64,000 bases of DNA from Patescibacteria group bacterium (GTDB lineage Bacteria > Patescibacteriota > Patescibacteriia > Patescibacteriales > UBA12075). Location of the stretch: positions 156,565 to 220,564 of the forward strand of contig JAHILH010000001.1 of assembly GCA_018897195.1 (NCBI GenBank), written 5' to 3'. A model generated the notes under the pieces. It did not search any database, was not told the DNA's origin, and worked only from the letters and a program-made list of their open reading frames with translations. Of this stretch, positions 2,791-54,005 are shown one piece after another (the first letter of the stretch is position 1; every line of letters starts with the position of its first letter). Both the position numbers and the translations under genes were made by a program.

Positions 2791-3588
2791 ATGGAAATTA
2801 AGGAGTTTTTACAATTGTTAAACAGAAAAAAACAGACCGTCTTCTCAGTTTTGTTTTTATGCATTTTACTGATGGCTATTTCATTGTCTTTTCAGTCTTT
2901 TAAATATGAGGCTAAGTCGAAAATTTTGTTATTACAACATAATGGGGAGGCAACAGACCCATATACGGCTGCTAAATCCAGTCAGTTTATTAGTAGCCTG
3001 CTAGCGCAAGTGGTAACTTCAAACTCTTTTTTGAATGATGTGTTTGAGTCTGGATTTAATATTGATGAGACATATTTTGGCGATAATTTAAATACAAGAC
3101 TGAAGAAGTGGGAAAAAACAGCAGAGGCAAGAGCTATAAATGATACGGGCATCATTGAAATAAATATTTATCACACCGACAAGAGTCAGTCTGAGCAGAT
3201 TAATAGTGCCATTATAAATATTATCAAAACAAAGAATGGTTCGTATTATGGAAGAACAGAAGATATATCAATTAAAGTAATAAATGAGCCAATTGTTTCG
3301 GCTTGGCCAGTACGACCGAATATCTTGCTCAATCTGTTTCTGACAATTTTTTTATCATTTATGATTTCTTTTTCTTTTATCGTTTTATTCCCCGATGAAA
3401 AATACAATTTAAGTGTTTGGCCGAAAAGAAAAAAGAAAGAGAAAATTGTTGTAACAGAAAAGATTAATTTTGCGGACAAAATGAACGAAGAGAAGCCAAT
3501 GAATAAGGTAGAGTTTGCGCCCAAGGTAGATGCTTTTACAGAACGTGGCGATATTAAGAATATCTTTGATCAATCGAATACAAAATAA
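2791..3588 (+). CDS. Wzz/chain-length-determinant-like bitopic membrane protein
   Basis: The N-terminus LLNRKKQTVFSVLFLCILLMAISLSF..YEAKSKILL resembles the Wzz N-terminal domain. A second TM near the C-terminus (NILLNLFLTIFLSFMISFSFIVLF) is followed by a Lys-rich tail. The family call is from memory only. Confidence 0.5.
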   Translation: MEIKEFLQLLNRKKQTVFSVLFLCILLMAISLSFQSFKYEAKSKILLLQHNGEATDPYTAAKSSQFISSLLAQVVTSNSFLNDVFESGFNIDETYFGDNLNTRLKKWEKTAEARAINDTGIIEINIYHTDKSQSEQINSAIINIIKTKNGSYYGRTEDISIKVINEPIVSAWPVRPNILLNLFLTIFLSFMISFSFIVLFPDEKYNLSVWPKRKKKEKIVVTEKINFADKMNEEKPMNKVEFAPKVDAFTERGDIKNIFDQSNTK

Positions 3589-3652
3589 ATTTAGATTTTG
3601 AAGCTGGAAAATAATTTCAGCTTGAGAATCGAAATAATTTGGTTCTTGCTAT

Positions 3653-3682
3653 TTGACAACTAAATCAAGAAAAACATATAAA
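3653..3682 (+). promoter_or_regulatory. candidate promoter of the four-gene exported-protein cluster
   Basis: TTGACA (3653-3658), 18-nt spacer, TATAAA (3677-3682). AAGGAGG and ATG 3701 follow directly. Confidence 0.5.
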
Positions 3683-3700
3683 TGTCAAAGGAGGCGCGCT

Positions 3701-4753
3701 ATGAAAACGTTAGTGAAATGCTTGGTCGTTTTGTTGGCGCCGGTATTGCTTGGCGCTTGTGCAGCGAAGAATACGATGTATTTGCCGAAGTACGCTATCA
3801 CGGATCCTGGTAATGCAATTAGTATTCCGCATCCTATTGAGATGCAGAAAAAAGAAGTAAAGTCAGTAACAATTTGGACAGGAGTTCTTAGCCCTGATCT
3901 ATTGGTTGAAGTCATTTCCGGTAATGGGGTTTTTCCAATTATCGGTAGCGATGGAAAAAAGGAATTTTACGGATTTGCTTATTTGGTTGATTTGAATTAT
4001 TGGGGAGAGTGGATAGGTCAATTCGAAATTCAATGCTCCGAAAGCGAGGCTAAATCAGCAAAGTTTGTTCTGGTTAATCGCGATGGTGGTTTTGCCTACT
4101 CTTTGATGGGCGAGCGGATTACCACCGTCGACAAAAGTGATCCTCAGAAGAATATAAACCCTTATGATGTTGAGAAATTTGATACTGACCTCGAGGTGAG
4201 GTCAAGGTTTCTGACCGAATTTGGAATGACATTTTCTGAAGTAAACACTTCTTGGCAAAAATTTTTTTATGCCAAGGGAATTAACTTTGGCAATAGATCT
4301 GTCGTTACGGAATATGCAATTGGTTCAAGTGATTGGTTAAAAATGGTTGACAAAGTCAATCAAGATATTGAGTCAGGCAAACTAACTGCTTACAAAGTTG
4401 GTGGCGAAATTAGGATTGGAAGAATGAACTTTGATCAGTTTGCTGATAAAGCTTCAGATGTTCCTGATTTCAAGATCGGCGATCGCATTATCAAGCGTGC
4501 CGCTGTTCCAGTTGTGTCCCTAGCCTCAATGGCTATCGGGCCATTGGCAATGGCAGGTGCTGGATTTGGTGGAACGGTTTATTCTGCTAATATTGATAAC
4601 GATTGGCATGGACATACGCTTCGCAGTAAATTTTGGGGCTATGAATTGGCACCAACATTTCGCTCTGTCTGTGAGCAGTATAAAAAATTGCTTATTGGCA
4701 GAGATGAGGAAATTAGGAGATTAAAACATCCAACTCAACTATCTCGGAGATGA
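3701..4753 (+). CDS. lipoprotein, unknown function
   Basis: I chose ATG 3701, preceded by AAGGAGG (3688-3694), over the TTG at 3653 used in the ORF track. MKTLVKCLVVLLAPVLLGACAAK is a signal peptide with lipobox LLGAC. I recognise no domain. Confidence 0.75.
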   Translation: MKTLVKCLVVLLAPVLLGACAAKNTMYLPKYAITDPGNAISIPHPIEMQKKEVKSVTIWTGVLSPDLLVEVISGNGVFPIIGSDGKKEFYGFAYLVDLNYWGEWIGQFEIQCSESEAKSAKFVLVNRDGGFAYSLMGERITTVDKSDPQKNINPYDVEKFDTDLEVRSRFLTEFGMTFSEVNTSWQKFFYAKGINFGNRSVVTEYAIGSSDWLKMVDKVNQDIESGKLTAYKVGGEIRIGRMNFDQFADKASDVPDFKIGDRIIKRAAVPVVSLASMAIGPLAMAGAGFGGTVYSANIDNDWHGHTLRSKFWGYELAPTFRSVCEQYKKLLIGRDEEIRRLKHPTQLSRR

Positions 4754-4766
4754 GAGAGGAGGCAAT

Positions 4767-6275
4767 ATGAAAAAATTTTGGCAACTTTTTGCCATTACCT
4801 TGGCGGTGTTGGCAATGCCGGCATTGTCGAGTGCGGAAAAAGTTATTCATGAAGTTCAAAAAGGGGAGACGGCAAGCGGTATTGCGAAGCAATACGGCGT
4901 TACCGTCGAAAGCCTTGGCATCACTGATTCTAAGGGATGGGTATATGTCGGGCAGAAATTAACCATTTTTGACACGGAAAGAAAAGTGTCTTCTGCAAAG
5001 AAAAATTTCTCGTCCGATGAACCATTTCTCTGGAAAGTTCCTGGTGGTGACAAGTTTCGCGGTAGAGACGATGTCGCTTTCGAAAAGCTTAACTTGAGTA
5101 CGGTAGAAATTATTGAGCTCGAAAAGTTAATCGAGGCGAAAAGCTTTGACGTGTTGCCGATTTGTTATGGCGACAGATTTGAGATTATGGTTTTTGCAAA
5201 CATCAAAATTCGTGAAAATGTAATTGCAAGTTGGGACAAAAACAAGTGCCAGGCCGCTAGAATGTATAAATTGTCTAGCGGTAAAGAAGTTTGGATGCCA
5301 TTCATTTGTCGTAACTGGTCTGTTCGTGTTCCGAATCAGCCTGTTCCCGTAAAAAATGATGTGCCACCAACTTTAGACAATGGCTTTCCGCCGGCTCTCG
5401 AGGGTGGTCTTCCGCCAGCACCACCATCTGCACCAGAAGTCGGCTCTAATGGTGGTTCAAATCGTAATACCATTGATATTATAATGGGTACCGGTGCATA
5501 TGAAGATGCTCACAATTCTGGACATACAGGCGGATATGTTTGGATTAAAGGACGTGGATTTGTTTGGTCGTATGACATTGATCATGATTTAGCTCTGGAT
5601 GTCGGCATTGCTGCTTTTTATGCAGCGGGTGGCGGCAATGATCGTGGATATGATTATGACTGGAATGAATTTGTTGCCGGTCCGGCTTTTCGCTTGACAG
5701 GAAATGGTTGGGATGGAAATCTTGATCTGATGTATGGGCGATTGAATAATGAGGGCGATGTAAGTCTTTATTCTTCAAGTCAGAAGGATAATGTTTTTAT
5801 CACTTCAGTGCATTACAACGATTATCATCGGCGTCAGCAAAATGAGCTCGTGTTCCCGAAGTTTGAAGCCAACGTCGAGTATCGTCACGTCTTGAAGTCA
5901 TCGATTGATGCGAATTGGGGTGGTACACCTTTGGTGGAGACTCCCAACGATAACAATGCGGCTGAATTAACATTGACGCCTTATTTGTACGATTTTCGTC
6001 TGGATAATGGTGTTACTGTTAGCCCCTTGGTTGATTTTGGCCTGGGCTATGAAAATGGTGACAAGACTTATGCTCGTATTATGCCTGGTGCAGCCGTGAG
6101 TATTAATGATACTGACGTTCTCCAGGTGCGGGCATTCGGTTATAAGGACATGCTTGAGAGTGATAAGTCGCAAATCAGTTGGTTTGCCATTACACTCGAT
6201 CTGGGCGGGGTATACAAAGTATATCGCCGCGGGCAAATCAGCTCCGTTGATCGGAGTGAACTCGATCCTCGTTAG
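4767..6275 (+). CDS. secreted LysM-domain protein with Pro-rich linker and beta-strand-rich C-terminal domain
   Basis: GAGGAGG Shine-Dalgarno. Signal peptide MKKFWQLFAITLAVLAMPALSSA. LysM motif HEVQKGETASGIAKQYGVTVESL...VGQKLTI. Pro-rich PPTLDNGFPPALEGGLPPAPPSAP. About 270 aa of alternating aromatic/Gly-rich short strands follow. Confidence 0.8.
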   Translation: MKKFWQLFAITLAVLAMPALSSAEKVIHEVQKGETASGIAKQYGVTVESLGITDSKGWVYVGQKLTIFDTERKVSSAKKNFSSDEPFLWKVPGGDKFRGRDDVAFEKLNLSTVEIIELEKLIEAKSFDVLPICYGDRFEIMVFANIKIRENVIASWDKNKCQAARMYKLSSGKEVWMPFICRNWSVRVPNQPVPVKNDVPPTLDNGFPPALEGGLPPAPPSAPEVGSNGGSNRNTIDIIMGTGAYEDAHNSGHTGGYVWIKGRGFVWSYDIDHDLALDVGIAAFYAAGGGNDRGYDYDWNEFVAGPAFRLTGNGWDGNLDLMYGRLNNEGDVSLYSSSQKDNVFITSVHYNDYHRRQQNELVFPKFEANVEYRHVLKSSIDANWGGTPLVETPNDNNAAELTLTPYLYDFRLDNGVTVSPLVDFGLGYENGDKTYARIMPGAAVSINDTDVLQVRAFGYKDMLESDKSQISWFAITLDLGGVYKVYRRGQISSVDRSELDPR

Positions 6276-6492
6276 GCAGAGTAGTATACCGCAGTATATG
6301 TTTGAGTGATTTTAGACAAAAAAACCACTTATATTGGCGCAAAATGTGCCAAAATATAAGCAATAGGAGCGAGCAAAAGTTCGCAAATGTGATAGCAAAA
6401 GTTATCCACCTAGATGGGCAAAGTCTAAGAATATCTCAGCTTGATTTATTAGTTGACAATTATCACGTCCTGTGGTAGTTGTAGTATATAAC

Positions 6493-6529
6493 ATTGGTGA
6501 TGCATTGTAACAAACAATGCATCACCAAT
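6493..6529. repeat. perfect 16-bp-stem inverted repeat in a 370-nt intergenic gap
   Basis: ATTGGTGATGCATTGT (6493-6508), loop aacaa, ACAATGCATCACCAAT (6514-6529). A TTGACA lies at 6453-6458. Confidence 0.8.
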
Positions 6530-6646
6530 ATCTTAATTTAAAAAAAGATTTGTATTTAGTAAATTATCTTTATGATAGTTTGCTAAAAAACAGGCTCTTT
6601 TAAAATAAAGTGTGCATTTGCACAAAATCAAAGGAGGAGGTGTGTT

Positions 6647-7168
6647 ATGCGAAAAAACATCTGGTTGTTGATGTGTGTTGGTTGTTTTCTGATGTTGGTT
6701 GTCGGTGTTAGTGCTGACGAGATCCCGCCGGCCGGTAAATTGGTGACTACGGGATCTGATCCGGAGGTTGTTGTCGGCGTTGAAAACAGCGTTGCTACGC
6801 TTGGTTTTCCCCTGACGCTTGGCCAGAGAGAAAAACTGGGACACAAGTCTTATCCCTGGCAGATGTCTGTCAGCGTCGCTCGTTTCGTTGGTGACGAATG
6901 GCAACTGAAGGCCGAAGAAAAGGATCGGTACGAGGTGCAAACCGCGGCTGATAACAGTTCGCACACGATCGGGATGCAGTATAATATGCCCACCGATGGT
7001 TGCGACTGGATTCGCACCTGGGGCAAATCCAGCGCCGATTGGCTCTGGATTTCACAGTCGTCAAAATATTACCGCAAAGCTCAAAATGGCAAACCTGGCT
7101 ATGAGGCATTGGTTTGCTCCGACGGCAAAGTACATGTTGTACCCGACAATTATCCGTTGCGTCCGTAG
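6647..7168 (+). CDS. secreted protein, unknown function
   Basis: AAAGGAGGAGG Shine-Dalgarno. Signal peptide MRKNIWLLMCVGCFLMLVVGVSA/DE. 173 aa. Confidence 0.75.
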   Translation: MRKNIWLLMCVGCFLMLVVGVSADEIPPAGKLVTTGSDPEVVVGVENSVATLGFPLTLGQREKLGHKSYPWQMSVSVARFVGDEWQLKAEEKDRYEVQTAADNSSHTIGMQYNMPTDGCDWIRTWGKSSADWLWISQSSKYYRKAQNGKPGYEALVCSDGKVHVVPDNYPLRP

Positions 7169-7193
7169 GGGACACGATGGATGAAAAAACATG

Positions 7194-7230
7194 AAGGCGC
7201 TTTCAATTTCTTGAAAGCGCCTTTTTTCTT
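7194..7230 (+). terminator. strong intrinsic terminator between the third and fourth cluster genes
   Basis: Perfect 13-bp stem: AAGGCGCTTTCAA (7194-7206) pairs with TTGAAAGCGCCTT (7211-7223). Loop tttc, then T6. Confidence 0.8.
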
Positions 7231-7251
7231 CAACAGAAAAGGAGAGAAAAG

Positions 7252-7959
7252 ATGAAAGGGGTTAATATTTTCGCAGTATGTTTCTTGTTTTTCTCTTTTT
7301 TGACAGGCTGCGCAACGCAGCAACCAAAGTCGGAAAATATTCCTCAGGCAGTTTTGCCCGGAATTCCTGATGGCGCGATTCACGTGAGGGAGAAGATTTT
7401 TCGTCTTCAACCTCCGGAAGATTCATTTGATTTTGCTGTATTTTGGTATCAAATCGCCGCCTTGCATCAGGCTCCGGATGCAAATAAAAATTTGAGCGGA
7501 ATCATTGTGAAATCATGCCGCATCACTTGCATGGATAGCAACGGCAAGAAGATCTTTGAAAGAAATTTTGCCGGCGACACGCTTCTTGGTCCGGAATTGG
7601 GGGGGCTTTACGACCGTAATCCGTGGTTTAAAAGCGATAAGCACACGCCTATTTTCGCTCAGCGAGTTTTGCCCGAACAAGGCTTGGTGATCAACGCCTC
7701 GCTCGTGCCGGATAAGATAGTGCACTGGTGGACCGAACGTTTTCGCTACAACTCAAGAAACAAGTATAAAGTCGAGATGAAGGTCAAAATCATCGGCGAC
7801 ACAGCTCTGCAAATCGGCGGCGATTACTGGAAAGGAGCCTCGTCTCCTCACACCGGCTGGGACGCAGAATGTCGCGGCACAAATAACTGTGAAGCCTTTG
7901 TTTCCGAATGGTATGGTGATACTAAAGGCAAATATATCACCATCACCAAAGAGCTTTAA
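7252..7959 (+). CDS. lipoprotein, unknown function
   Basis: AAGGAGAG Shine-Dalgarno. MKGVNIFAVCFLFFSFLTGCATQQ is a signal peptide with lipobox LTGC. 235 aa. Confidence 0.8.
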   Translation: MKGVNIFAVCFLFFSFLTGCATQQPKSENIPQAVLPGIPDGAIHVREKIFRLQPPEDSFDFAVFWYQIAALHQAPDANKNLSGIIVKSCRITCMDSNGKKIFERNFAGDTLLGPELGGLYDRNPWFKSDKHTPIFAQRVLPEQGLVINASLVPDKIVHWWTERFRYNSRNKYKVEMKVKIIGDTALQIGGDYWKGASSPHTGWDAECRGTNNCEAFVSEWYGDTKGKYITITKEL

Positions 7960-8147: not shown

Positions 8148-10811
8148 ATGAATCTAGATAAAATCTTTAAACCGAAAAGAATTGCCGTTATTGGCGCTAG
8201 TAGTGAAGCCGGAAGTGTTGGTTTTGCTCTATTCCACAACATCATAAATAGCGATTTTAAGGGCACTGTGACGCCTGTTAGTCTGAAAAGGGATAAAGTA
8301 CAGGGTATTAAGGCGGTGAAGAATATCGGCGATATTCAGGAAAAACAGGATTTGGCGATTATTATAACTCCAGCCAAGACGGTGCCATCAGTCCTGGAAG
8401 AGTGTGGAAGAGCTGGAGTCGGTGGAGTAATTATCATTTCATCCGGATTTTCTGAAATGGGCAAGGATGGCGAGAAATTAAGTGCAGAACTAAAAGCAAT
8501 TGCTAAAAAATATAATATACGGATTTTAGGACCAAACTGTCTTGGATACATAAACCCAGCCTTAAAACTTAATGCCAGTTTTGCTGGTGCAACTGCAAAG
8601 AAGGGGAATATTGCCTTCATCTCACAGAGCGGGGCTTTGTGCACTTCAATTTTAGACTGGGCTAACAAAAACAATGTGGGCTTCTCATATTTTGTCTCAA
8701 TTGGCGAAATGGTGGATGTAAGCTTTCATGATTTGATTGATTACTTCGGTTCCGATCCAAATACAACTAGCATCTTGATTTATATGGAAACCTTAAAAGA
8801 CGCGCGCAAATTTATCAGTGCAGCGCGAGCTTTTTCAAAAGGTAAACCGATTGTTGTCCTAAAGGCTGGTCGTAGTGAAGAAGGAGCAAAAGCCACTAAG
8901 TCACATACTGGTAGCTTAGCGGGGAATGACAAAGTTTTCACTGCTGCCTTTGATAGAGCTGGTGTAATTCGCGTAGACACCGTTGTTGGCTTATTTCATG
9001 TGGCTAAAACTTTATCAATGCAATCACTTCCAAAAAGTAATCGCTTAGCAATTTTAACTAATGCCGGCGGTCCTGGTGTAATCGCCACCGATGCTTTGAT
9101 TTATTCAGGAGGTAAATTAGCCAATCTATCTCAAGGAACGATTACTGAATTGGACAAGGTTTTACCAAAGTCTTGGAGTCGAAATAACCCAATTGATGTA
9201 ATCGGTGATGCTGATGCAGATCGTTATGAAAAGGCACTGAAGATTTGTCTCCGCGATGATAGCATTGACGCCATCCTTATAATCCTTACCCCACAAGCAA
9301 TGACTGATCCAACCAAGGTAGCGAAGCGAATTGTAGAGATGACCAAAAAATCAAGCAAAACTATTCTAGCGAGCTGGATGGGCGGACAATCAGTAGCAGA
9401 GGGGAGACGACTTTTGGAATCTGGAAACATCCCAACTTATCGAGCACCCGAAGATGCAATAAATGCCTTTATGAATGTTCATAAATATTCTCGTAATCTA
9501 TCGATATTAAATGAAACACCATCATCTATTCCACACGCCTTTACCCCTAAGACTGATGAAAATAAAGAACTAATTAAGCGCGTAGTCGCTGAAGGACGAT
9601 ATTCCCTAAATGAAACGGAAGCCAAAGTGTTACTTGCAAATTATGAAATACCAGTAGTTAAAAATGGCTTAGCCAAAAACTCAATTGAAGCTGGTACGGT
9701 AGCAGCTAAAATTGGTTTTCCCGTGGTTATGAAAATTTTATCTCCAGATATAATTCACAAGGTTGATGTTGGCGGCGTTGTCTTGAATGTTAATTCCAAG
9801 AAAGAAGCTGAGGCTAATTTTGAAAAAATTATCAATTCTGCTCGGGCGCATTTTCCCAAGGCGCAGATTGACGGTATTTTTATCGAGGGCATGATTAATA
9901 AAAAATACGAGCTGTTGATTGGTTCTAAAAAAGATCCGATTTTTGGCCCAGTGATCGTCTTTGGAATGGGGGGTGTGGCAGTTGAGGTGTTTCAGGATAT
10001 CAAAGTCGGCTTGCCTCCATTAAACATGTCTTTGGCAATGAGATTGATCGAAGGCACAAAAATTTACAAACTTTTACAAGGTTACCGTAATATGCCTGGA
10101 GTTGATATTCAATCGATTCAATTTTTATTATATAAATTTGCTTACCTTATCGCCGACTTTCCGGAAATTAGCGAGATTGATATCAATCCTTTTGCCGTGG
10201 ATGAACATGGTGGCATTGTTTTGGATGCAAAGGTTATCCTAGACAAACAAGTGCTTAGTAAGCCAGTTAAGCCTTATTCACACCTAGTTATTTCTCCATA
10301 TCCAAAAGAATACATCTCTAGTGTAAAAACTAAGAGCAAGAAAAATATCACCATTAGACCAATAAGACCCGAAGATGAGCCAATGGAAGATGTGATGTTT
10401 GCTTCAATTATGGCGAGCACACATGAACATATCTTTTTTGATAAGATTAAAAACATAACCCATGATTTGTTAGAAAGATATGCGCAAATTGATTATGATC
10501 GAGAAATGGTATTAATTGTGGAAGGCACAAATGGTAAGCGTGTCGAAATGGCGGGCTTAGCTAGATTAATCGAGGATCCGAATAGCAACTCCGCTGAGTT
10601 TTCTTTCGTTGTGCCTGATGGTTGGCAGGGGAATGGTATTGGTGGTATTTTGGTTGATAAGATTTTAGAGGTGGCACGCGATAAAGGGTTTGAAAAGATT
10701 TATGCTAAGTTTTTGGCGCACAATAATCCGGCAACTGGTATTTTTACCAAGCGTGGATTTACCATTAGTAAAAAAGGTGAGATCGGAATTGCAGAATTGA
10801 CAATTAGTTAA
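8148..10811 (+). CDS. ADP-forming acyl-CoA synthetase-like / GNAT acetyltransferase fusion (Pat/YfiQ architecture)
   Basis: 887 aa. N-terminal CoA-binding motif KRIAVIGAS. Succinyl-CoA-ligase-like and ATP-grasp segments. C-terminal GNAT motif QGNGIGGILVDKILEVARDKG. Size and domain order match Pat-type protein acetyltransferases (about 886 aa). Confidence 0.88.
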   Translation: MNLDKIFKPKRIAVIGASSEAGSVGFALFHNIINSDFKGTVTPVSLKRDKVQGIKAVKNIGDIQEKQDLAIIITPAKTVPSVLEECGRAGVGGVIIISSGFSEMGKDGEKLSAELKAIAKKYNIRILGPNCLGYINPALKLNASFAGATAKKGNIAFISQSGALCTSILDWANKNNVGFSYFVSIGEMVDVSFHDLIDYFGSDPNTTSILIYMETLKDARKFISAARAFSKGKPIVVLKAGRSEEGAKATKSHTGSLAGNDKVFTAAFDRAGVIRVDTVVGLFHVAKTLSMQSLPKSNRLAILTNAGGPGVIATDALIYSGGKLANLSQGTITELDKVLPKSWSRNNPIDVIGDADADRYEKALKICLRDDSIDAILIILTPQAMTDPTKVAKRIVEMTKKSSKTILASWMGGQSVAEGRRLLESGNIPTYRAPEDAINAFMNVHKYSRNLSILNETPSSIPHAFTPKTDENKELIKRVVAEGRYSLNETEAKVLLANYEIPVVKNGLAKNSIEAGTVAAKIGFPVVMKILSPDIIHKVDVGGVVLNVNSKKEAEANFEKIINSARAHFPKAQIDGIFIEGMINKKYELLIGSKKDPIFGPVIVFGMGGVAVEVFQDIKVGLPPLNMSLAMRLIEGTKIYKLLQGYRNMPGVDIQSIQFLLYKFAYLIADFPEISEIDINPFAVDEHGGIVLDAKVILDKQVLSKPVKPYSHLVISPYPKEYISSVKTKSKKNITIRPIRPEDEPMEDVMFASIMASTHEHIFFDKIKNITHDLLERYAQIDYDREMVLIVEGTNGKRVEMAGLARLIEDPNSNSAEFSFVVPDGWQGNGIGGILVDKILEVARDKGFEKIYAKFLAHNNPATGIFTKRGFTISKKGEIGIAELTIS

Positions 10812-16172: not shown

Positions 16173-17345
16173 ATGAAAATATTAGGAATACATGTAACCG
16201 ATGACTCCCGCGAGGAGGTTTTGGGGCGGATTGAGGGGTTTTTGGAGTCTGATAGGCAGAATATTGTGGTAACGCCGAATCCGGAGATTATTTTGGCTGC
16301 GCAGGACGATGAGAAGCTTTTTCACATTTTAAACATTGCCAGTTTGTCACTGGCGGATGGGATTGGCTTAAAGTTGATGGGACTATTATTGGGGGAGAAT
16401 GTAGTCCGGATAACAGGGGCTGATTTAGTAGTGGATATTTTGAAAATGGCACAGAGTCGAAAAAGTAATGTTGGAATAATTAATTGGTCAGGCGGACTTT
16501 CGAGTTTTGGAGAAATAAAAAAAACATTAGAAGAAAAATTCGTAGGTATAAAAGTCTTTGTAACTGATATCGCAGAAAAAGATTTTAACAACAAAAATAT
16601 CAGTTTTGTGAGCTTAAGTAATTGTGAAATAATTTTGGCCAATCTGGGAGCTCCTTATCAAGAGAAAATTATCTTTAACAACTTGCCGCAATTTCCCAAG
16701 GCGCGAGTTTTGATTGGTATCGGTGGTGCTCTTGATTTCTTGACTGGTAAAATAGCTCGAGCGCCGTTTATCTTGCGCAAAATTGGCATGGAGTGGTTGT
16801 GGCGCTTAATTAAACAACCGACGCGCATTAAGAGAATTATTAACGCCGTTATAGTTTTCCCATTACGGTTCTTTAAATTTCATTTTATTAATTGTTTTTT
16901 CTATCGGCCCAACGTTGCTTGCTTGCTGTATAAAAAATCAGAATCTGGTTATTCTTTTTTATTAATAAGTCGCAGTGATATTGAACACCATTGGCAAGTA
17001 CCACAAGGAGGCTTGGATGGTTTAAACGCAGAAGAGGCGGCCAAAAAGGAGTTGAGCGAGGAATTGGGAACTGATAAATTTGTCACCAAGGCGATTGTGA
17101 AAAATATTTATCGTTATAAATATGTAGACAAAAAAACCGTCGTTAAACACCGTGGTTATAAGGGGCAAAAGCAAGATTTGTATATTGCAGAATTTATTGG
17201 TAATGATGAGGATATAAAAGTAAAAACTTGGGAGCATGCTGGCTGGCAGTGGGTGAGCGAGAATGAGTTCATTTCTTCACTGCACCAGGATAGGCGAAAG
17301 AGTGGAGAATTGTTTTTGGATAAATTCCAAAAATTGACAAAATAG
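16173..17345 (+). CDS. WecG/TagA/CpsF-family (GT26) glycosyltransferase fused to a NUDIX hydrolase domain
   Basis: The N-terminal 240 aa or so look GT26-like (NIVVTPNPEIIL, ADGIGL, MEWLWRL). The C-terminus has an RppH-like Nudix region HWQVPQGGLDGLNAEEAAKKELSEELG. Confidence 0.8.
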   Translation: MKILGIHVTDDSREEVLGRIEGFLESDRQNIVVTPNPEIILAAQDDEKLFHILNIASLSLADGIGLKLMGLLLGENVVRITGADLVVDILKMAQSRKSNVGIINWSGGLSSFGEIKKTLEEKFVGIKVFVTDIAEKDFNNKNISFVSLSNCEIILANLGAPYQEKIIFNNLPQFPKARVLIGIGGALDFLTGKIARAPFILRKIGMEWLWRLIKQPTRIKRIINAVIVFPLRFFKFHFINCFFYRPNVACLLYKKSESGYSFLLISRSDIEHHWQVPQGGLDGLNAEEAAKKELSEELGTDKFVTKAIVKNIYRYKYVDKKTVVKHRGYKGQKQDLYIAEFIGNDEDIKVKTWEHAGWQWVSENEFISSLHQDRRKSGELFLDKFQKLTK

Positions 17346-21756: not shown

Positions 21757-22635
21757 TTACTTGTAATAAACGCTGTCGCCGACACTGACGTCGATGTATT
21801 GTCTAGATTTAAAATCGTCTTTAAATTTTTCGTTCTTGATGATAGCCAGCTTGTTTAATTGTTTCTTGATGTCTGTGGTAATAGAAAAATAAATTTCTGG
21901 ACCGTCAACTAGCTTGCTGTTAACCATATTGACGGCATCGCCAATGATAAACTCTTGAACCTTGAAATCTGGGTATTCCTTGTACTTATCAGCCAAGGCA
22001 AACATAAAATCGATATACTCGCCCCCTGGGGCTATTTTTTTGTTATTAACCTTGTTGGCGGATTTATTTTCGACGATGGGGAGGCCGGACTGATTGGCTG
22101 CGTCTTGGTTTGTTTCTGATATTATATAACCGCTACGATCAGTATTGTAATACTTCCCGTCCTCGAGCCAGATCAAAGCTTGCTTCTTTTCCACATAACT
22201 TATCTTCACGGTATGCAGACCGCTACGACTGATATTTAATTTATCAAATAAATACTTTGTTTCTATTTGATCCACTAACCCGCCTTTGCTGCAAAAAATT
22301 ATATTACTCCTGGGTGAAAATACAAATGACTTATAGTTAATCTCATCCAAGGCAATCTGCTGGATCTCGTTTTTATCAATTTGTCCGTCCCCTTCAATTA
22401 CAATATTTTGAATCTCAAAAGTTTTGGAATACAACAAAAACCACGTTAAAAATAAAACCAATGAAACGGTTGTCGTTGTTAGGACACGAACTTTCCAATC
22501 AAAATCTTTTTTAACTGCAGTTGCCCTACGTTCCGCAAAAAAAGGATTGGAATAATCCTTTGATGCATAAGAGCTACCTCCTTTTTTCTTAATTTTTGCC
22601 CTATTATTTTTGTTGTAAATTTTACTTTCGAGCAT
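21757..22635 (-). CDS. FtsQ/DivIB-like cell-division protein (TM + POTRA)
   Basis: GGAGG Shine-Dalgarno. One TM (VSLVLFLTWFLLY) is followed by a POTRA-like FEIQNIVIEGDGQIDKNEIQQI. Confidence 0.6.
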   Translation of the reverse strand: MLESKIYNKNNRAKIKKKGGSSYASKDYSNPFFAERRATAVKKDFDWKVRVLTTTTVSLVLFLTWFLLYSKTFEIQNIVIEGDGQIDKNEIQQIALDEINYKSFVFSPRSNIIFCSKGGLVDQIETKYLFDKLNISRSGLHTVKISYVEKKQALIWLEDGKYYNTDRSGYIISETNQDAANQSGLPIVENKSANKVNNKKIAPGGEYIDFMFALADKYKEYPDFKVQEFIIGDAVNMVNSKLVDGPEIYFSITTDIKKQLNKLAIIKNEKFKDDFKSRQYIDVSVGDSVYYK

Positions 22636-29476: not shown

Positions 29477-31390
29477 TTATTTCCTAATTTCAATTTCGAT
29501 TCTTCCTGGTTCGATTAATGCGGGAATCTTGGTAATAAAGGATGGGTAGAATTGAATTTCGTGCCCAGCTAGGTCTAAGTTGCCAGTTTTATCAATGTCG
29601 TTTAGATAGGCATTGACTTGATCTTTATTTAAGCCGATTAATTTCTCTTTGTCAATGACGTTAGAATTATCCTTTAAAGTAACCATGCCCTCAAAAGAAG
29701 CGCCGACGTTGGCGGTGCCGTTCTCGACATTAAAGTTGTTTAGTGAGTAGTTAATATTTTCACTGTCAAAACTAACTAATTCTTTATTATCGGCTAATGA
29801 TTTCATTAATTTATCTTTAGCAATTTCTGCAAATATCTTATTGCTAAAAGCGACAACTACTACTTTGGCTTCCATGCCAATCTGAAATTCGGAGATTTCT
29901 TCACCTACTTTATTATTGACAGTTGTAATGATGGAATTCTCATCTATCTTGTAAATTATCTTATCGTAATTACTGTAGCTGTCATTGACTTCCTTTTTGG
30001 CATTGTTTAATAATTCTTGTTTCAAGTCCTTGACGCCATTCCTAATGTCATCTTCGGAGATACTTTTTTTGACTTTTTGTTGATAGATAGCCGCTTCTGA
30101 ACTTTCAGCATAAATCTTGTCCTGGAGACCTGCCCATAGACCAGGAATGGTGAACTTGGACGCGCCAATCGCCATTTCTGGACTTGAATCATCGGCGTAA
30201 ATCTCAGCCTCAACTGATCCGTTTACGGGAATGTCGACGGTATTTTTTAGTCTAAATAATTTACCATCAGTTGATAATAATCTAGTACTCGCGACTAAAG
30301 GTTGATTTTTGATATAATTATTTACTAGTCTAACCTTGCCAATCACCTCTTTGCCCAAAACCTCTTCGTTTGTGGCAGGATATGTCTTGGAAAAACTAAC
30401 CGCTGTTTCTTTAACAACACCGATCACCTTTTCACCAACAGCCTCATCGACGTTTTGATTCTTTTCGGCATCCAGAACATCAAAAATTGCATTATTGCTA
30501 ATTCTTTCCTGACTAGGTATTAAAACTATCTTAACATGTATAAATGTGAAGTAGAAAACCGCCGCACCAACTGCCATTAATAATAATGCAAAAAAATAAG
30601 CAATTTTTTTATAAATACCAATAGCATGCGATGATAATTTGAAGACATTATTTTCATGCTCAATAACAGGGGTTTCTGGTACTTTTTTGGCATTTTCTGC
30701 GTCTGTCTTTGCGGCATTGGCGGCGGCAATGACCTTTTTTACGGCATCGCTTTCAACATTCCACAATCCATCCTGTTCTTCTGTTGCGCTTTCGATAATT
30801 TTCTCGTCAATTTTAATGGCGGCATCTGGCACTACAACAACAACATCTTTTTTCGCCTCGATTTTATTACTTTCAGCAATAACGGCTTCAACTGGTGATG
30901 TTGATGCGCCGTTGTCTGCGTCATTGCTAGTTTCTGCTGGAGTGGTTGCTGTGATATTTTCCACAGGCTTTTCTGTCCCCAGGGTTTCTGAGGTGGCAAT
31001 TAATTCATCGATATTATTTTGAATTTTACCTTTGATATTGATTTTAATAGCAATTTCCTCATCATCAGAATAACTGTCTTGGTTAATTGGACCATCTGAA
31101 TATAAAGTCTCTGCAGGCTTTTCAGCGCTAATCAATGGTTTAATAATTATTGGTTTTTTGTCTACCTTTTTCGTGCTTGTTTTTTTTACAGTTGATTTCT
31201 TAACCACTTTTTTTTCTTTAACAACTTTATCCTTAGTGGTAGCTATGGCACCCTCAATCTTTTTCGGTCTTCCCGCTTTCTTTTTTACAACAATATTCTC
31301 CGCGTTTACCTGAGTGATTTCTTCTTTTTGATTATCTTTTTTTTCTGCTGTCATAAAAAAATTATTAATTTCGATTGAGGAATCCGCCAC
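29477..31390 (-). CDS. bitopic membrane protein: Lys-rich/AT-hook-like N-terminus, one TM, large C-terminal outside domain
   Basis: 637 aa. KKAGRPKKIEG and KKVVKKSTVKKTSTKKVDKK lie near the N-terminus, followed by an acidic/Thr-rich low-complexity stretch. TM is IAYFFALLLMAVGAAVFYFTF, then about 360 aa. The start codon is uncertain (GTG 31390 or ATG 31354). I vaguely recall similar C-terminal domains annotated as baseplate-J-like in uncultivated lineages. This is unverified. Confidence 0.7.
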   Translation of the reverse strand: MADSSIEINNFFMTAEKKDNQKEEITQVNAENIVVKKKAGRPKKIEGAIATTKDKVVKEKKVVKKSTVKKTSTKKVDKKPIIIKPLISAEKPAETLYSDGPINQDSYSDDEEIAIKINIKGKIQNNIDELIATSETLGTEKPVENITATTPAETSNDADNGASTSPVEAVIAESNKIEAKKDVVVVVPDAAIKIDEKIIESATEEQDGLWNVESDAVKKVIAAANAAKTDAENAKKVPETPVIEHENNVFKLSSHAIGIYKKIAYFFALLLMAVGAAVFYFTFIHVKIVLIPSQERISNNAIFDVLDAEKNQNVDEAVGEKVIGVVKETAVSFSKTYPATNEEVLGKEVIGKVRLVNNYIKNQPLVASTRLLSTDGKLFRLKNTVDIPVNGSVEAEIYADDSSPEMAIGASKFTIPGLWAGLQDKIYAESSEAAIYQQKVKKSISEDDIRNGVKDLKQELLNNAKKEVNDSYSNYDKIIYKIDENSIITTVNNKVGEEISEFQIGMEAKVVVVAFSNKIFAEIAKDKLMKSLADNKELVSFDSENINYSLNNFNVENGTANVGASFEGMVTLKDNSNVIDKEKLIGLNKDQVNAYLNDIDKTGNLDLAGHEIQFYPSFITKIPALIEPGRIEIEIRK

Positions 31391-31542: not shown

Positions 31543-31614
31543 TGATCCCTAGGAGAATCGAACTCCTGTTATCAGGATGAGAACCTGGTGTCCTAACCAT
31601 TAGACGAAGGGACC
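31543..31614 (-). tRNA. tRNA-Glu (anticodon CUC), no encoded CCA
   Basis: The reverse complement GGTCCCTTCGTCTAATGGTTAGGACACCAGGTTCTCATCCTGATAACAGGAGTTCGATTCTCCTAGGGATCA folds as a cloverleaf. Anticodon loop is TTCTCAT. T-arm is AGGAG-TTCGATT-CTCCT. Confidence 0.9.
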
Positions 31615-31676: not shown

Positions 31677-31748
31677 TGATCCCTAGGGGAATCGAACCCC
31701 TATTATCAGGATGAAAACCTGGTGTCCTAACCACTAGACGAAGGGACC
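31677..31748 (-). tRNA. tRNA-Glu (anticodon UUC), no encoded CCA
   Basis: The reverse complement GGTCCCTTCGTCTAGTGGTTAGGACACCAGGTTTTCATCCTGATAATAGGGGTTCGATTCCCCTAGGGATCA folds as a cloverleaf. Anticodon loop is TTTTCAT. Confidence 0.9.
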
Positions 31749-40010: not shown

Positions 40011-41747
40011 ATGTTTTCAAAAAAGCAATTAAAAAATATTCTTTTGAGTGCGGAAATTATTTCCGCTGATGACTTTGAGAAGTTATCAGCGGAGGCAATT
40101 AGCCTTGGTAAGCCACTTGAGAATTTATTAGTCGAAAAGAAAATTACTTCTTCTTTGGCTATATGTGAAAATGCGGCCAGCTATTACAAGCTGCCCTTTA
40201 TTGATTTAAAAAACCAAAATATTCGTAAAGATGTTTTATTTTCAATTCCAGAACCAATTGCTTCTGCGCACGAAATTATTGCCTTTGACTCTGATGGCAA
40301 GGATTTAAAACTAGCCTTGATAAATCCGGAAAATATCCAGATTATTGAATTTATTAAGAAAAAAACTGGTCTAAATCCAGTGCTTTATGTTACCACCTCT
40401 GACAGTATTCATGACACTTTAAAGCAATATCACAAAAGTCTAAAGGCGGAATTCGATTATTTGTCCGATGAACAAAAAGAGGATCTTTCAGAATTGGATA
40501 TAAACAAAGATTTGAAGAAATTGGCTCAAGATGTGCCCGTGGTTCGTATCGTGGATACTTTATTGGAGTACTCCATTATTGAGGGCGCGAGTGATATTCA
40601 CATTGAGCCAGAAGAAAAAGACGTATTAGTTCGCTATCGTATCGATGGTATTTTGAAAAATGTAATGGTTTTACCCAAGAATGTTCAATCTGGCATTGTG
40701 GCGCGTATCAAAATTTTGGCGAATTTAAAAGTAGACGAACATCGCCTACCACAAGATGGTCGTTTTAAGATTTCCAACGCTGAACATAAGATGGCTTTTC
40801 GTGTTTCGATTTTACCAACCTTTGATGGCGAAAAAATTGTAATGCGTTTGTTAAATGAAAAAGGACAGATTTTAACCTTGGAACAGCTTGGTTTTCAGCG
40901 TAGCGCCTTAGAGGCTTTGAAGCGTAATATTACTAAGCCACACGGTGTGCTTTTGGTGACCGGACCAACGGGGTCAGGAAAAACCACTACCCTATATACA
41001 ATCTTAAGTATTCTTAATCAACCAGAGGTTAATATTTCTACCATTGAGGACCCAATTGAGTATCGTATGCCCCATGTGAACCAGTCACAGGTTAATGCCA
41101 AGATTGGTTACACCTTTGCTCAGGGCTTGCGTGCTTTTTTGCGGCAAGATCCGAATATTATTATGGTGGGAGAAATCCGTGATGAAGAAACGGCTGAAAT
41201 TGCGACGCATGCGGCTATGACTGGTCATATGGTGTTATCTACTATTCATACCAACAGCGCTGCGGCCACTTTGCCTCGTTTAACTGAAATGGGTATCCCC
41301 TCTTTTTTGATTGCAACGACGGCCAATGCTATTATTGCGCAACGTTTGGTGCGAAAAATATGTCCAAATTGTATTCAAAGTTTTAATCTGGATAAAGAAG
41401 TTATTGATAAACTCGAAAAACAATTAAATATCGGAAGTATTTTAACGACACTGGAACAGGAGAAGCAAATTTTGAGCGCTAAAAAGGGGTTATCGCAATT
41501 GCTGTTTTATCGCGGTAAGGGTTGTAAGCAATGTAATAATACTGGCTATAAGGGGCGTATTGGTATTTATGAAATATTAGAAAACACTCCGGATATATCA
41601 TCATTAATTGTTAAAAATGCCAGTGCTCATGAGATTCATCAAAAGGCCATCGAGCAAGGCATGTTGACGATTGTTGAAGATGGTTTTATTAAGGCGAAAA
41701 ACGGCGTGACAACAATTGAAGAGGTGTTGCGCGTGACAAAGGAATAG
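40011..41747 (+). CDS. pilB: type IV pilus assembly ATPase (GspE/PilB family)
   Basis: N-terminal GspE-N-like domain. Walker A GPTGSGKTTT, GEIRDEETA, and tetracysteine CPNC...CKQC. Confidence 0.92.
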   Translation: MFSKKQLKNILLSAEIISADDFEKLSAEAISLGKPLENLLVEKKITSSLAICENAASYYKLPFIDLKNQNIRKDVLFSIPEPIASAHEIIAFDSDGKDLKLALINPENIQIIEFIKKKTGLNPVLYVTTSDSIHDTLKQYHKSLKAEFDYLSDEQKEDLSELDINKDLKKLAQDVPVVRIVDTLLEYSIIEGASDIHIEPEEKDVLVRYRIDGILKNVMVLPKNVQSGIVARIKILANLKVDEHRLPQDGRFKISNAEHKMAFRVSILPTFDGEKIVMRLLNEKGQILTLEQLGFQRSALEALKRNITKPHGVLLVTGPTGSGKTTTLYTILSILNQPEVNISTIEDPIEYRMPHVNQSQVNAKIGYTFAQGLRAFLRQDPNIIMVGEIRDEETAEIATHAAMTGHMVLSTIHTNSAAATLPRLTEMGIPSFLIATTANAIIAQRLVRKICPNCIQSFNLDKEVIDKLEKQLNIGSILTTLEQEKQILSAKKGLSQLLFYRGKGCKQCNNTGYKGRIGIYEILENTPDISSLIVKNASAHEIHQKAIEQGMLTIVEDGFIKAKNGVTTIEEVLRVTKE

Positions 41748-41777
41748 ATTTTTAAAAATAATTAATAAATAAAAACT

Positions 41778-42914
41778 ATGGTAGTTAATTTTAGTTCGCA
41801 GGACTATGGCGCAAATGATGTCAAAAAAGAAGAGGTGCCTATAATGGATAAAATTAATAATTTTCTTCTGACTCTGACTCCAATCGCACTAAAAGAAAAA
41901 TTATTTTTTGTGCAACACTTGGGATTGATGCTTAAGTCCGGCATTTCTCTTGCGCGTGCGCTTAAGACTTTAGCTGACCAATCCGAGAATAAACATTTTA
42001 ATCAAATTTTAACTGATGTGGCTAGCCGAGTTGAAAAAGGCTCAAGTTTTGCTGAATCCTTAGAGGATTATCGTAAAGTTTTTGGTGATCTTTTTTTGAG
42101 TATGATCGACGCCGGAGAATTGTCAGGTAAACTAGAGGAGGTGCTTAGACAACTTTTTGTGCAGATGAAAAAAGAGCATCAATTAGTTTCTAAGGTGAAA
42201 GGGGCCATGACGTATCCGGCAGTTATCCTATTTGCGATGTTCGGTATCGGTGCTTTTATGTTAATCGTGGTGGTTCCAAAAATTACAGCCATGTTTGATG
42301 AGTTACATGCTGAATTGCCACTAGCCACAAAAATTTTGATTGGGGCCAGTGATGCTATTAGAAATAATGGCATAATGGTTGTGATTGGATTGGGAATTTT
42401 TATTACAGCTTGGGTCAAGATATTAAAAACCTATAAAGGAAGATACATTCTTCAGACAATCTTGTTGCGGGCACCGGTTTTTGGCACAATTATCAAAAAA
42501 ATTAATCTCGCGCGTTTCGCGAGAAATATTAGTTCTCTTTTGAAGACTGATATTATGATTGTAAAATGCTTCCAAATCACTGCCAACGTTCTGGGAAATT
42601 TACATTATAAGGCGGCCTTGAATGATATGTCGCAAGTAATCAAGCAGGGCGGTAAATTAAATGAAGCTGTTAAGGCCTATCCCCATCTTTTTACTCCAGT
42701 AGTTGTGCAAATGATTGCCATTGGCGAAGAGACTGGTGAGCTTGATAATATTTTAATGGAATTAGCTGAGTTTTACGAAGATGAAGTTGATCAGATTATG
42801 GAAAATTTACCAACTATTATTGAGCCCTTATTAATTCTTGCACTTGGCCTAGGCGTTGGTGGCGTGGCCGTGGCTATCGTGATGCCAATGTTTGCCATTT
42901 CATCGGCAATATAA
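41778..42914 (+). CDS. pilC: type IV pilus platform protein (GspF/PilC family)
   Basis: Two T2SS-F repeats (SGISLARAL..., GEETGELD) and three TM segments. An alternative start is ATG 41844. Confidence 0.9.
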   Translation: MVVNFSSQDYGANDVKKEEVPIMDKINNFLLTLTPIALKEKLFFVQHLGLMLKSGISLARALKTLADQSENKHFNQILTDVASRVEKGSSFAESLEDYRKVFGDLFLSMIDAGELSGKLEEVLRQLFVQMKKEHQLVSKVKGAMTYPAVILFAMFGIGAFMLIVVVPKITAMFDELHAELPLATKILIGASDAIRNNGIMVVIGLGIFITAWVKILKTYKGRYILQTILLRAPVFGTIIKKINLARFARNISSLLKTDIMIVKCFQITANVLGNLHYKAALNDMSQVIKQGGKLNEAVKAYPHLFTPVVVQMIAIGEETGELDNILMELAEFYEDEVDQIMENLPTIIEPLLILALGLGVGGVAVAIVMPMFAISSAI

Positions 42915-42919
42915 AATTA

Positions 42920-47020: not shown

Positions 47021-47075
47021 AATTTTAAAAAAGCCATTGTTTTTTTATATGGCTGGGCATTCATTTTCCTCAACT

Positions 47076-47651
47076 ATGAAAAATAAAACCGGTTTCACTA
47101 TGATTGAATTAATTGTCGTGATTGCAGTTATGGGTGTCATCTCAACCATGGTTTTAAATTTTACCGTCATGGGTCTGAGAGCTTCTCGTTTTGAGGCTGA
47201 ACAAGCTGAAGCGGTCAAACAAGCCAGAGATGCAATGAACATTATGAAGACTGAAATTAGAGGCGCAAATAATTCCGCCCATGGTGATTACCCGATTTCT
47301 GTAATTACTAATCAAGAGTTTGCTTTTTTCTCCGACATCGACAAGGATGATGTGTATGAAAAAGTTAGATACTACCTCGACGGCTTGGAGTTAAAAAAAG
47401 CTGTCATTGAGCCCAATATCTCTAATTTGTATACAGACCCACCAGTCATTACGGTTATTGCTAATTACGTCAATAATCAAACCGAAAATGTCTTTAACTA
47501 CTATACCTCTAATTATACTATTGCTGGGGATATTAACGAGGTTAGATTAATTAATATGAATTTAAAAATCAACGTTACTCCGGAAATATCACCGGCTGAT
47601 ATTTATGTCGAAACTGATGTTGCTCTCCGTAATCTTAAATCAAATTTATAA
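47076..47651 (+). CDS. minor (pseudo)pilin
   Basis: MKNKTG/FTMIELIVVIAVMGVISTMVL is a class III signal. I chose ATG 47076 over the track start at 47001, which overlaps the previous gene. Confidence 0.75.
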   Translation: MKNKTGFTMIELIVVIAVMGVISTMVLNFTVMGLRASRFEAEQAEAVKQARDAMNIMKTEIRGANNSAHGDYPISVITNQEFAFFSDIDKDDVYEKVRYYLDGLELKKAVIEPNISNLYTDPPVITVIANYVNNQTENVFNYYTSNYTIAGDINEVRLINMNLKINVTPEISPADIYVETDVALRNLKSNL

Positions 47652-47655
47652 GTTA

Positions 47656-49245: not shown

Positions 49246-49286
49246 AATGTGTTACAATAAAGTTATAAAATATTTAATACTAAAGT

Positions 49287-50435: not shown

Positions 50436-50436
50436 A

Positions 50437-52985: not shown

Positions 52986-52996
52986 ACAATTGTAGT

Positions 52997-53617: not shown

Positions 53618-53665
53618 ATATTATTTTCGGTCAAGGAGTTTAAATACTTCAACCATGCAAAACCC

Positions 53666-53995: not shown

Positions 53996-54005
53996 ATTTT
54001 TATAG

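Follow-up and report, generated by a model that had tools for sequence, protein, structure and literature searches.

The window considered here is a stretch of 64,000 nucleotides of contig JAHILH010000001.1 from a Patescibacteria group bacterium and, with flanks of ~10 kb drawn from the same 565-kb contig, it sets the genomic scope of what follows. At 4767..6275 on its plus strand, it carries a gene with an ATG start for a protein of 502 residues that comprises, after a signal peptide, a LysM domain, a middle α/β domain, a proline-rich linker, a 12-stranded β-barrel and a C-terminal helix. The gene lies within a short series of envelope genes, namely, those for a Wzz-like polysaccharide co-polymerase (PCP) and a lipoprotein upstream of it, and those for a small secreted protein and a second lipoprotein downstream. 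The protein is best described as a wall-tethered barrel of the outer-membrane protein (OMP) type, although each of the known systems with which it was compared has some defining feature that it lacks: its fold and tethering are well supported, whereas a role for the barrel in glycan export is something that we infer from the gene context. The NCBI record of an identical protein reads 'LysM peptidoglycan-binding domain-containing protein [Candidatus Parcubacteria bacterium]'.

The signal peptide (residues 1–23; 4767..4835) is MKKFWQLFAITLAVLAMPALSSA, with EK following the predicted cleavage point. As read from the sequence, it is typical of the Sec (signal peptidase I) type, with a basic N-terminus, a hydrophobic core and an A-x-A-like cleavage site, cleavage being predicted after SSA and before a glutamate. 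This N-terminus is conserved in a full-length orthologue from a second species (P0002; see below), and most family members have signal-peptide-like N-termini. The LysM domain (residues 28–67; 4848..4967) matches PF01476 over profile positions 1–42 of 43 (E = 1.1e-6; 28.9 bits against a gathering cut-off of 20.9), and is the only part of the protein recognised in sequence searches of Pfam, NCBIfam and the PDB, the last of these returning weak matches to LysM chains. A sequence-only reading of this DNA had proposed a signal peptide, a LysM domain and a proline-rich linker, and all three are present: the linker, PPTLDNGFPPALEGGLPPAPPSAP, corresponds to residues 200–223 and falls within a longer spacer (residues ~191–235; 5337..5471) that is predicted to be disordered, its predicted local distance difference test (pLDDT) values being 45–61. 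Both the length and the sequence of the spacer are highly variable across the homologues; it amounts to ~45 residues here, and the alignment shows insertions rich in P, E, K and V that range from ~20 to >100 residues. What that reading had missed is the α/β domain between LysM and spacer (residues ~85–190; 5019..5336; pLDDT 81–97), which is built from two helices and six strands, and has conserved residues at Trp89, Pro92-Gly93, Gly135-Asp136, Cys181 and Asn183-Trp184. This middle domain has no match in Pfam or NCBIfam, and yet it is kept across the family; indeed, some family members match this module only (profile positions 1–110), with no detectable match to the barrel.

The barrel itself (residues 236–479; 5472..6203) is predicted with confidence by AlphaFold2, provided that the alignment is sufficiently deep: the mean pLDDT rose from 30 with two sequences, a model that was discarded, to 87.5 with 110, for which the predicted TM-score (pTM) was 0.67. 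In the latter model, twelve antiparallel strands, all with pLDDT >92, span residues 236–247, 253–272, 275–292, 295–312, 315–332 and 335–352 (β1 to β6), and 362–384, 398–408, 416–429, 433–446, 449–462 and 468–478 (β7 to β12); they are mostly joined by turns of 2–5 residues, such that the loops are short on both sides. The sequence-only reading had suggested that the last 270 residues or so form an outer-membrane barrel on the strength of ten strand-like runs, each of which is present and corresponds to one of the predicted strands β3 to β12; its account was right for these, and only the first two strands (236–247 and 253–272) had escaped it. Moreover, the soluble sandwich or lectin fold against which structure prediction had been set as a check was not seen. 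When the model was searched against the PDB using Foldseek, 50 of the 50 matches listed were to membrane β-barrels (OMPs, BAM-complex entries and porin-derived designs). The best of these were the autotransporter translocators EspP, Hbp, BrkA, AIDA-I and NalP (E values from 3e-7 to 6e-5, probability 1.00), with target-normalised TM-scores of up to 0.60 and sequence identities of 8–13% in the structural alignments; PgaA (PDB code: 4y25) appeared only at rank 18. From these matches we infer that the predicted barrel is closed.

The family profile shows the alternation expected of a membrane-type barrel. Within the strands, conserved hydrophobic columns alternate with conserved charged ones, as exemplified by Asp316, Leu319, Asp320, Leu321, Arg325 and Leu326, and glycines 280, 290 and 305 are near-invariant. 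When hydrophobicity is averaged over the profile on the Kyte–Doolittle scale, counting in residue pairs from the strand ends at the face of the barrel where both termini lie, the hydrophobic phase has values of 1.1–2.2 over the first five pairs (10 residues) and falls abruptly to ≤0.2 thereafter, even though six of the strands extend for up to 8–12 further residues and strands reach 20–23 residues in length. Additionally, the fraction of Trp and Tyr is 0.07–0.08 in the middle of this band and 0.2–0.3 at both of its edges. In the context of the model, the band fits a membrane-thick belt flanked by aromatic girdles, rather than the full-height core of a soluble barrel. The most conserved residues within the strands are polar or charged, namely, Gln339, Asp320, Lys309, Asp341 and Arg263.

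The protein terminates in SELDPR, and does not, therefore, present the aromatic β-signal at its extreme C-terminus; the sequence-only reading had noted this correctly and had taken it to mean that the protein was not a textbook OMP. The explanation lies in a conserved amphipathic tail of ~23 residues (480–502; 6204..6275, including the stop codon), for which the model has a helix at 479–490 and which follows the last strand in the long forms only, with the pattern GG-x-Y-K-A-x-x-A-S-x-I...D-L. Relatives that consist of the barrel only lack the tail and stop straight after the last strand in ...NFDF, ...SLEF, ...SFEF or ...NYLY, i.e. in a terminal Phe or Tyr; these termini align with residues 470–479 of the window protein (ISWFAITLDL), the terminal Phe falling at Leu479. 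Internal β-signals exist in OMPs that have C-terminal extensions.

The orthologue P0002 comes from a contig (L001) of the sister species, and is full-length, syntenic and 59% identical. Further relatives were difficult to retrieve: a word-indexed search gave one true relative (three with a barrel-only profile), and it required an exhaustive HMMER search with a LysM-less profile, over a space of 1.84 billion, to reveal 182 cluster representatives at E ≤ 1e-3, of which 95 were at ≤ 1e-10 and 34 at ≤ 1e-30. One apparent relative, L009 from a Planctomycetaceae metagenome-assembled genome, proved to be a false positive, being an unrelated 210-residue protein that shares the motif DGWDGNLD. Many family members are of ~500 residues and have the same layout as the window protein, whereas some of 250–290 residues possess a signal peptide and the C-terminal module only. 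A Pfam scan of 98 members found LysM in 52 of them; besides LysM, there were only single weak matches, all of which were to membrane β-barrel families (OMP_b-brl, KdgM, BBP2 and Autotransporter). Among distant members, the OMP_b-brl score was 27.2 bits against a cut-off of 28.7, one member matched KdgM at 9e-4 (19.4 bits against 22), and one of the 98 matched Autotransporter (PF03797) weakly at 2.2e-4. Judging from these sequence comparisons, the LysM-barrel proteins constitute an undescribed and uncurated family of the Patescibacteria with ~180 clusters at 50% identity.

The first gene of the module (2791..3588, plus strand) encodes the Wzz-like PCP, which is of the short, two-transmembrane-helix, Gram-positive CpsC-like type. 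It matches Pfam Wzz at E = 5.5e-4 (20.6 bits against 25.5) and GNVR at 0.025, both below cut-off, and NCBIfam TIGR01006 at E = 2.2e-6, far below cut-off. The second (3701..4753, plus strand) encodes a lipoprotein of ~350 residues with the lipobox LLGAC; a longer open reading frame (ORF) with a TTG start begins at 3653, and in the gene call of an identical strain the protein begins MKTLVKCL. Downstream of the barrel gene, and on the same strand, lie the genes for p173 (6647..7168), a small secreted protein with a signal peptide that is a member of the module in part of the family, and for p235 (7252..7959), a lineage-specific lipoprotein with the lipobox LTGC. Neither p173 nor p235 has a Pfam match. 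The gene order ThrRS (threonyl-tRNA synthetase), Wzz-like protein, lipoprotein, LysM protein, p173, p235, ACS-GNAT, GyrB, ClpB is the same in the window and in the sister species, where ACS-GNAT denotes an 887-residue fusion (8148–10811, plus strand) of an ADP-forming acetyl-CoA synthetase (ACS)-like module (CoA_binding, Succ_CoA_lig and ATP-grasp_5) to a C-terminal GNAT domain. The fusion has the layout of a Pat-type protein acetyltransferase, and is found beside GyrB in three related genomes.

The gene context was compared across the window, the sister species, five further family-bearing contigs of low GC content (0.33–0.40; L004, L005, L010, L011 and L012) and one more (L015). Genes for the Wzz-like protein, the ~350-residue lipoprotein and the barrel are adjacent, and their products homologous, in the sister species and in L004, L005, L010 and L012. 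In these last four contigs, all of which carry the long form, the order is Wzz-like PCP, a protein of ~340–360 residues, the barrel and a protein of 167–273 residues, sometimes with an extra LysM protein or a protein of no recognised type before the barrel gene. Homologues of the Wzz-like protein are encoded upstream of the barrel in all five further contigs (phmmer E values from 1e-18 to 1e-68), and several have stronger Wzz matches than the window copy; the first gene of L012 has no recorded Pfam match, but nevertheless aligns with its window counterpart at 2e-18. In the four long-form contigs, a homologue of the lipoprotein is encoded immediately ahead of the barrel gene (phmmer E values from 1e-47 to 1e-67), and the lipobox cysteine is present in every copy. 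Homologues of p173 follow the barrel gene in L010 (1e-16) and L005 (3e-13), whereas p235 is confined to the window and the sister species (64% identity), none being found in the other clusters sampled.

The neighbourhood also holds genes of glycan assembly. Beyond the barrel locus, all six contigs other than that of the sister species have a convergent gene for a Wzy_C polymerase/ligase, and in the four long-form contigs it is followed in turn by radical-SAM and family 4 glycosyltransferase (GT4) genes. Of the two contigs with a barrel-only protein, L011 has a GT2 gene in place of that for the ~340–360-residue protein, and no small downstream gene is called, while L015 has GT2, a small ORF, the barrel, and then the convergent Wzy_C and a GT1 gene. 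Taken together, this context points to a surface-glycan assembly module, as far as can be judged from gene order, rather than to tethering alone. A separate small LysM protein of 208–295 residues is encoded in or near some of the modules (L005, 9357–9983, plus strand; L010, 5507–6394, plus strand), and the wall-binding function may, therefore, have been split off or duplicated in different lineages.

The module appears to be mobile on an evolutionary timescale. A look-up anchored on GyrB revealed that the next-nearest genome keeps the ClpB-GyrB-ACS backbone from which the module is missing; thus, the module does not keep to one location, and relocation or transfer of a five-gene cassette is suggested. 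Its GC content is 0.44–0.51, compared with a window mean of 0.377. Between the two species, the proteins of the cassette (2791–7959 in the window and 7955–13224 in L001) are 59–72% identical, whereas the flanking housekeeping proteins are 92–97% identical. We had considered that this might be a hypervariable locus, but this idea was dropped: the two genomes represent different species in which synonymous sites are saturated. Since the identity of the flanking DNA, that of ThrRS included, is only 76–80%, the sequence divergence of the cassette indicates a weaker constraint, as would be appropriate for proteins of the cell surface, and is not proof of diversifying selection. By the same token, full-length identity of 59% against such a background shows that the barrel gene is real and constrained. 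A third allele had seemed to be provided by contig L007, in which the gene lengths differ, but the strain is identical and only its start codons have been called differently.

On this basis, we propose a composite reading, namely, that the protein is a peptidoglycan-tethered barrel of the OMP type that forms the distal part of a glycan-assembly module, and would give it somewhat less than an even chance of being correct. The LysM domain would fix the N-terminus to the peptidoglycan of the cell itself, and the spacer would extend outwards, through or beyond the wall, to place the barrel in a hydrophobic outer layer, for which a patch of lipid, a sheath or S-layer containing lipids, and a cryptic outer membrane are all candidates. 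In this layer, the barrel would offer a distal conduit or docking site to the glycopolymer made by the Wzy/Wzz machinery, with the lipoprotein and p173 bridging it to the cytoplasmic membrane. By analogy, such a mechanism would merge the tether logic of OmpM with that of the polysaccharide translocons, in which a PCP, a periplasmic adaptor and a barrel act in series.

The closest precedents for the gene context are the translocons of the EpsV-EpsY-EpsX type in Myxococcus, for which a Wzz-type co-polymerase, a periplasmic protein or lipoprotein and a barrel are likewise encoded near Wzy and glycosyltransferase genes. In contrast to the 12 strands predicted here, the known barrels of these Gram-negative systems are 18-stranded and resemble AlgE or PgaA; moreover, our lipoprotein lacks the Poly_export and SLBB domains, and the PCP is of the short Gram-positive type. 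An identification of the lipoprotein as an outer-membrane polysaccharide export (OPX) protein was considered, but is not supported, there being no Poly_export match in five copies. The fold, as modelled, is closest to the type V translocators, while the gene context resembles that of PCP/OPX/barrel translocons. With regard to size, a comparison may be made with the oligosaccharide-specific porins KdgM and NanC, which are 12-stranded OMP barrels, as here, and one of our family members has the weak KdgM match described above; however, the window protein has no such match, and KdgM and NanC have no LysM domain, spacer or link to Wzz and Wzy. Although they have 12 strands, the KdgM and NanC porins pass oligosaccharides, including acidic ones.

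A number of observations weigh against the composite reading, and these concern, in turn, the barrel, the module and the cell. No family member scores above the curated threshold of any OMP family, and a comparison of the barrel profile with the sequences in the PDB gave no meaningful solved structure; consequently, the family is OMP-like by its modelled fold and pattern, and yet stands outside the described OMP families. The dyad pattern alone cannot separate a hydrophobic face that points outwards from one that points inwards, and the entropies of the polar and hydrophobic faces (2.81 and 2.84, respectively; p = 0.30) do not tell the two apart in conservation. As to the module, the Wzz match in the window is sub-threshold, the ~350-residue lipoprotein has no Pfam match, with neither Poly_export nor SLBB being matched by any of five copies, and Wzy_C is not adjacent in the window or in the sister species, where the module instead lies between ThrRS and ACS-GNAT. 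Furthermore, the polysaccharide translocons that have been described are 16–18-stranded and wider than a 12-stranded barrel.

Other objections relate to the envelope of the organism. The named proteins nearest to its GyrB (73–77% identity) come without exception from Candidatus Falkowbacteria or from organisms labelled 'Patescibacteria group', which, by sequence and in independent agreement with the NCBI label, places it in the Patescibacteria near the Falkowbacteria, and the content of the window is typical of the candidate phyla radiation (CPR): many aminoacyl-tRNA synthetases stand among envelope genes, and there are a DUF5656 gene and an MraY-FtsW-MurG-MurC block. The literature regards Patescibacteria as being without an outer membrane, and published cryogenic transmission electron microscopy of groundwater CPR showed cells that have a periodic S-layer (3.8 and 10 nm) but lack an outer membrane. 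In keeping with this, the 64-kb window contains no gene for BamA or other Bam components, nor any Lpt, Lol or Lpx gene, and Tol-Pal genes are likewise absent from it; nor does a PilP/PilQ secretin follow the type IV pilus operon of the window. With neither these genes nor a secretin, there is no known layer or assembly machine for the barrel. The pilus operon (40011–51583, plus strand) encodes PilB, PilC, a 1366-residue protein, a second pilin (216 residues), a 546-residue protein, PilM, PilN and PilO; the 1366-residue protein has an N-terminal pilin methylation motif and a CarboxypepD_reg domain. Given that no secretin gene follows it, the pilus is, from its gene content, of the monoderm style with a giant pilin-like subunit.

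Set against this is a gene that lies just outside the window, directly upstream of ThrRS (878–2617) and ~4 kb from the barrel gene. It encodes a 310-residue lipoprotein with the lipobox LSGC and a strong, full-length match (E = 5.7e-30; 104.9 bits) to the outer-membrane lipoprotein family MlaA/VacJ, so that two proteins of outer-membrane type are encoded close together. The gene was read in the same strain (L007, 7742–8674), in L008 (8708–9640) and, at the same place, in the second species (L001, 4771–5643), on the minus strand in each case. According to a published survey of Mla systems, the lack of MlaA in Terrabacteria goes hand in hand with that of Lol. Our own literature search on BamA, MlaA or LysM-barrels in Patescibacteria found nothing relevant.

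The alternative that survives best, although we consider it rather unlikely, is that the barrels pack into an S-layer- or toga-like sheath containing little or no lipid, to be held on the peptidoglycan by LysM and spacer in the manner of OmpM/SlpA or the Omp-α/β proteins of Thermotoga, the glycan cluster only decorating or anchoring the layer. The order of wall-binding module, spacer and C-terminal barrel is indeed common to the window protein and to the OmpM/SlpA tethers of diderm Terrabacteria, in which an SLH domain, a coiled coil and a porin barrel follow one another, and CPR have been placed in the Terrabacteria, the clade with OmpM-type tethers. The toga, moreover, consists of arrays of β-barrel trimers with small lipid patches only and is enriched in a LysM protein, and a sheath would accord with the shortness of the loops at either end of the predicted barrel and with the periodic outer layer, devoid of an outer membrane, that is seen on CPR cells. 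The correspondence with OmpM is nevertheless imperfect: LysM takes the place of SLH (for which there is no match), a proline-rich spacer and an α/β domain that of the coiled coil, and the barrel is 12-stranded and unrelated in sequence to porins, in an organism for which no outer membrane is known. Beyond this, 182 cluster representatives among 1.84 billion do not describe a general S-layer protein of the CPR, the hydrophobic belt would need to be buried by lipids or by neighbouring barrels, and a role in a lattice alone leaves the tight linkage to Wzz and Wzy_C, and to the conserved lipoprotein, unexplained.

A distinctly improbable account is that of a type V-like self-exporter, in which the barrel would translocate the LysM and middle domains to the cell surface, where LysM could bind host peptidoglycan or chitin-like glycans and so mediate the attachment of an episymbiont. 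In its favour, a signal peptide, N-terminal domains, a linker and a C-terminal 12-stranded barrel are the classical order of an autotransporter; the type Va translocators (EspP, Hbp, BrkA, AIDA-I and NalP) agree with our barrel in strand number, approximate size and C-terminal position, besides being its best structural matches; one family member has the weak Autotransporter match (2e-4); and CPR are host-attaching episymbionts. However, the window protein has no match to PF03797 at E ≤ 1, a proline-rich, disordered stretch stands ahead of the barrel where a pore-filling α-helix would be expected, there is no β-helical passenger, and the barrel-only relatives keep the gene context without a passenger of any kind; in any case, the cell would still need to have an outer membrane and a machine for assembly. 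The inverse autotransporters (type Ve; intimin and invasin) are the one class of type V proteins known to carry LysM, which is periplasmic and stays on the wall side, and is followed by a 12-stranded barrel and a C-terminal Ig-like passenger. Our protein shares with these the presence of an N-terminal LysM domain and a 12-stranded barrel in a single polypeptide, but has no IAT_beta match, ends in the helical tail of ~23 residues in place of the passenger, has an additional middle domain and a long proline-rich spacer, and belongs to a glycan cluster rather than to an adhesin locus.

Very improbable, in our view, is a host-directed pore, whereby the barrel would reside in the outer membrane of a Gram-negative host, with LysM on the wall of the symbiont, to form a junction or nutrient channel. 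CPR bacteria live as episymbionts that attach to Gram-negative hosts through dense contact interfaces and lack an outer membrane of their own, the OMP-type belt and long flexible spacer would suit such an arrangement, and the cassette evolves much faster than its flanks, as interface proteins often do. On the other hand, there is no known precedent for a monomeric 12-stranded barrel of this type entering a foreign membrane without BAM, the model has no toxin-like or pre-pore features, and the conserved company that the barrel keeps, consisting of a Wzz-like protein of the inner membrane, a lipoprotein and Wzy_C, suggests a cell-autonomous envelope machine. The least credible alternative, namely, a soluble wall-associated barrel (a lectin, or a binder of lipids or glycolipids within a hydrophobic interior) that is OMP-like in topology only, could draw on the ambiguity of the dyad pattern, the similar entropies of the two faces, the sub-threshold OMP family scores and the expectation of a monoderm organism, but is disfavoured by the complete absence of natural soluble barrels from the 50 structural neighbours listed, by a hydrophobic phase that stops some 10 residues into strands of up to 20–23, with Trp and Tyr at its edges as in a membrane belt, by the charged and polar character of the most conserved in-strand residues, as in OMP lumens, by the terminal Phe or Tyr of the barrel-only relatives, as in BAM substrates, and by a width of 12 strands, which exceeds what a simple hydrophobic core would allow.

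The sequence-only reading had likened the protein to an OmpA tether with reversed domain logic. This is plausible as an analogy, albeit incomplete: OmpA does combine a barrel and a peptidoglycan-binding domain in one polypeptide, but the domain order is reversed here, LysM replaces OmpA_C, there are 12 strands rather than 8, and there is no match to an OmpA family. Closer analogies are to be found in OmpM, and in the LysM domain and 12-stranded barrel of the inverse autotransporters.

A more far-reaching reading is that some Patescibacteria, among them Falkowbacteria-like Parcubacteria and others, may not be simple monoderms, having kept or re-acquired an outer hydrophobic layer that bears genuine barrels of the OMP type. 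We hold this wider claim to be unlikely, albeit worthy of consideration. Such a layer might take the form of an outer membrane, whether cryptic or patchy, or of a toga-like sheath of barrels; an MlaA-type lipoprotein would service it, and its barrels would be tethered to the peptidoglycan by LysM and assembled without a recognisable BAM complex. The extent and route of outer-membrane loss in the CPR are central to models of bacterial envelope evolution, the current versions of which envisage a diderm last common ancestor and loss of the outer membrane through the failure of OmpM-type tethering. A barrel joined to a wall-binding domain and encoded near an MlaA homologue could represent either a relic of the transition from diderm to monoderm or an unrecognised outer layer; were the latter true, the LysM-barrel family would be the CPR counterpart of OmpM, as a relic or intermediate of that transition. 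Irrespective of this, the conserved module of four genes (for the Wzz-like PCP, the lipoprotein, the barrel and the small secreted protein) is a feature of CPR surface-glycan clusters, and its products may help to determine the surface properties of these episymbionts and how they attach to their hosts.

Several other features of the window merit a mention. A 390-residue fusion of a WecG/TagA-family glycosyltransferase to a NUDIX hydrolase is encoded at 16173–17345 (plus strand), and again in L013 (506–1744). A second surface-glycan cluster occupies 51828–59162, with no Wzy_C among the ORFs scanned; it is a block of glycosyltransferase and epimerase genes (GT4, GT2, NAD-epimerase and GT4), within which lies the gene for a 717-residue subtilase (Peptidase_S8) with FG-GAP repeats (55710–57863, minus strand). 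Three ORFs on the minus strand have no Pfam match, namely, 21757–22635 (292 residues), 52997–53617 (206 residues) and 29477–31390 (637 residues), the last of these being just downstream of two tRNA genes on the same strand (31543–31614 and 31677–31748). Finally, a protein resembling [FeFe]-hydrogenases, with Fe_hyd_lg_C, 2Fe-2S and 4Fe-4S domains, is encoded at 61566–63194 (minus strand), where it adjoins the gene for a small lycopene-cyclase-domain protein (63409–63978, minus strand); the two make an unusual pair for a reduced CPR genome.

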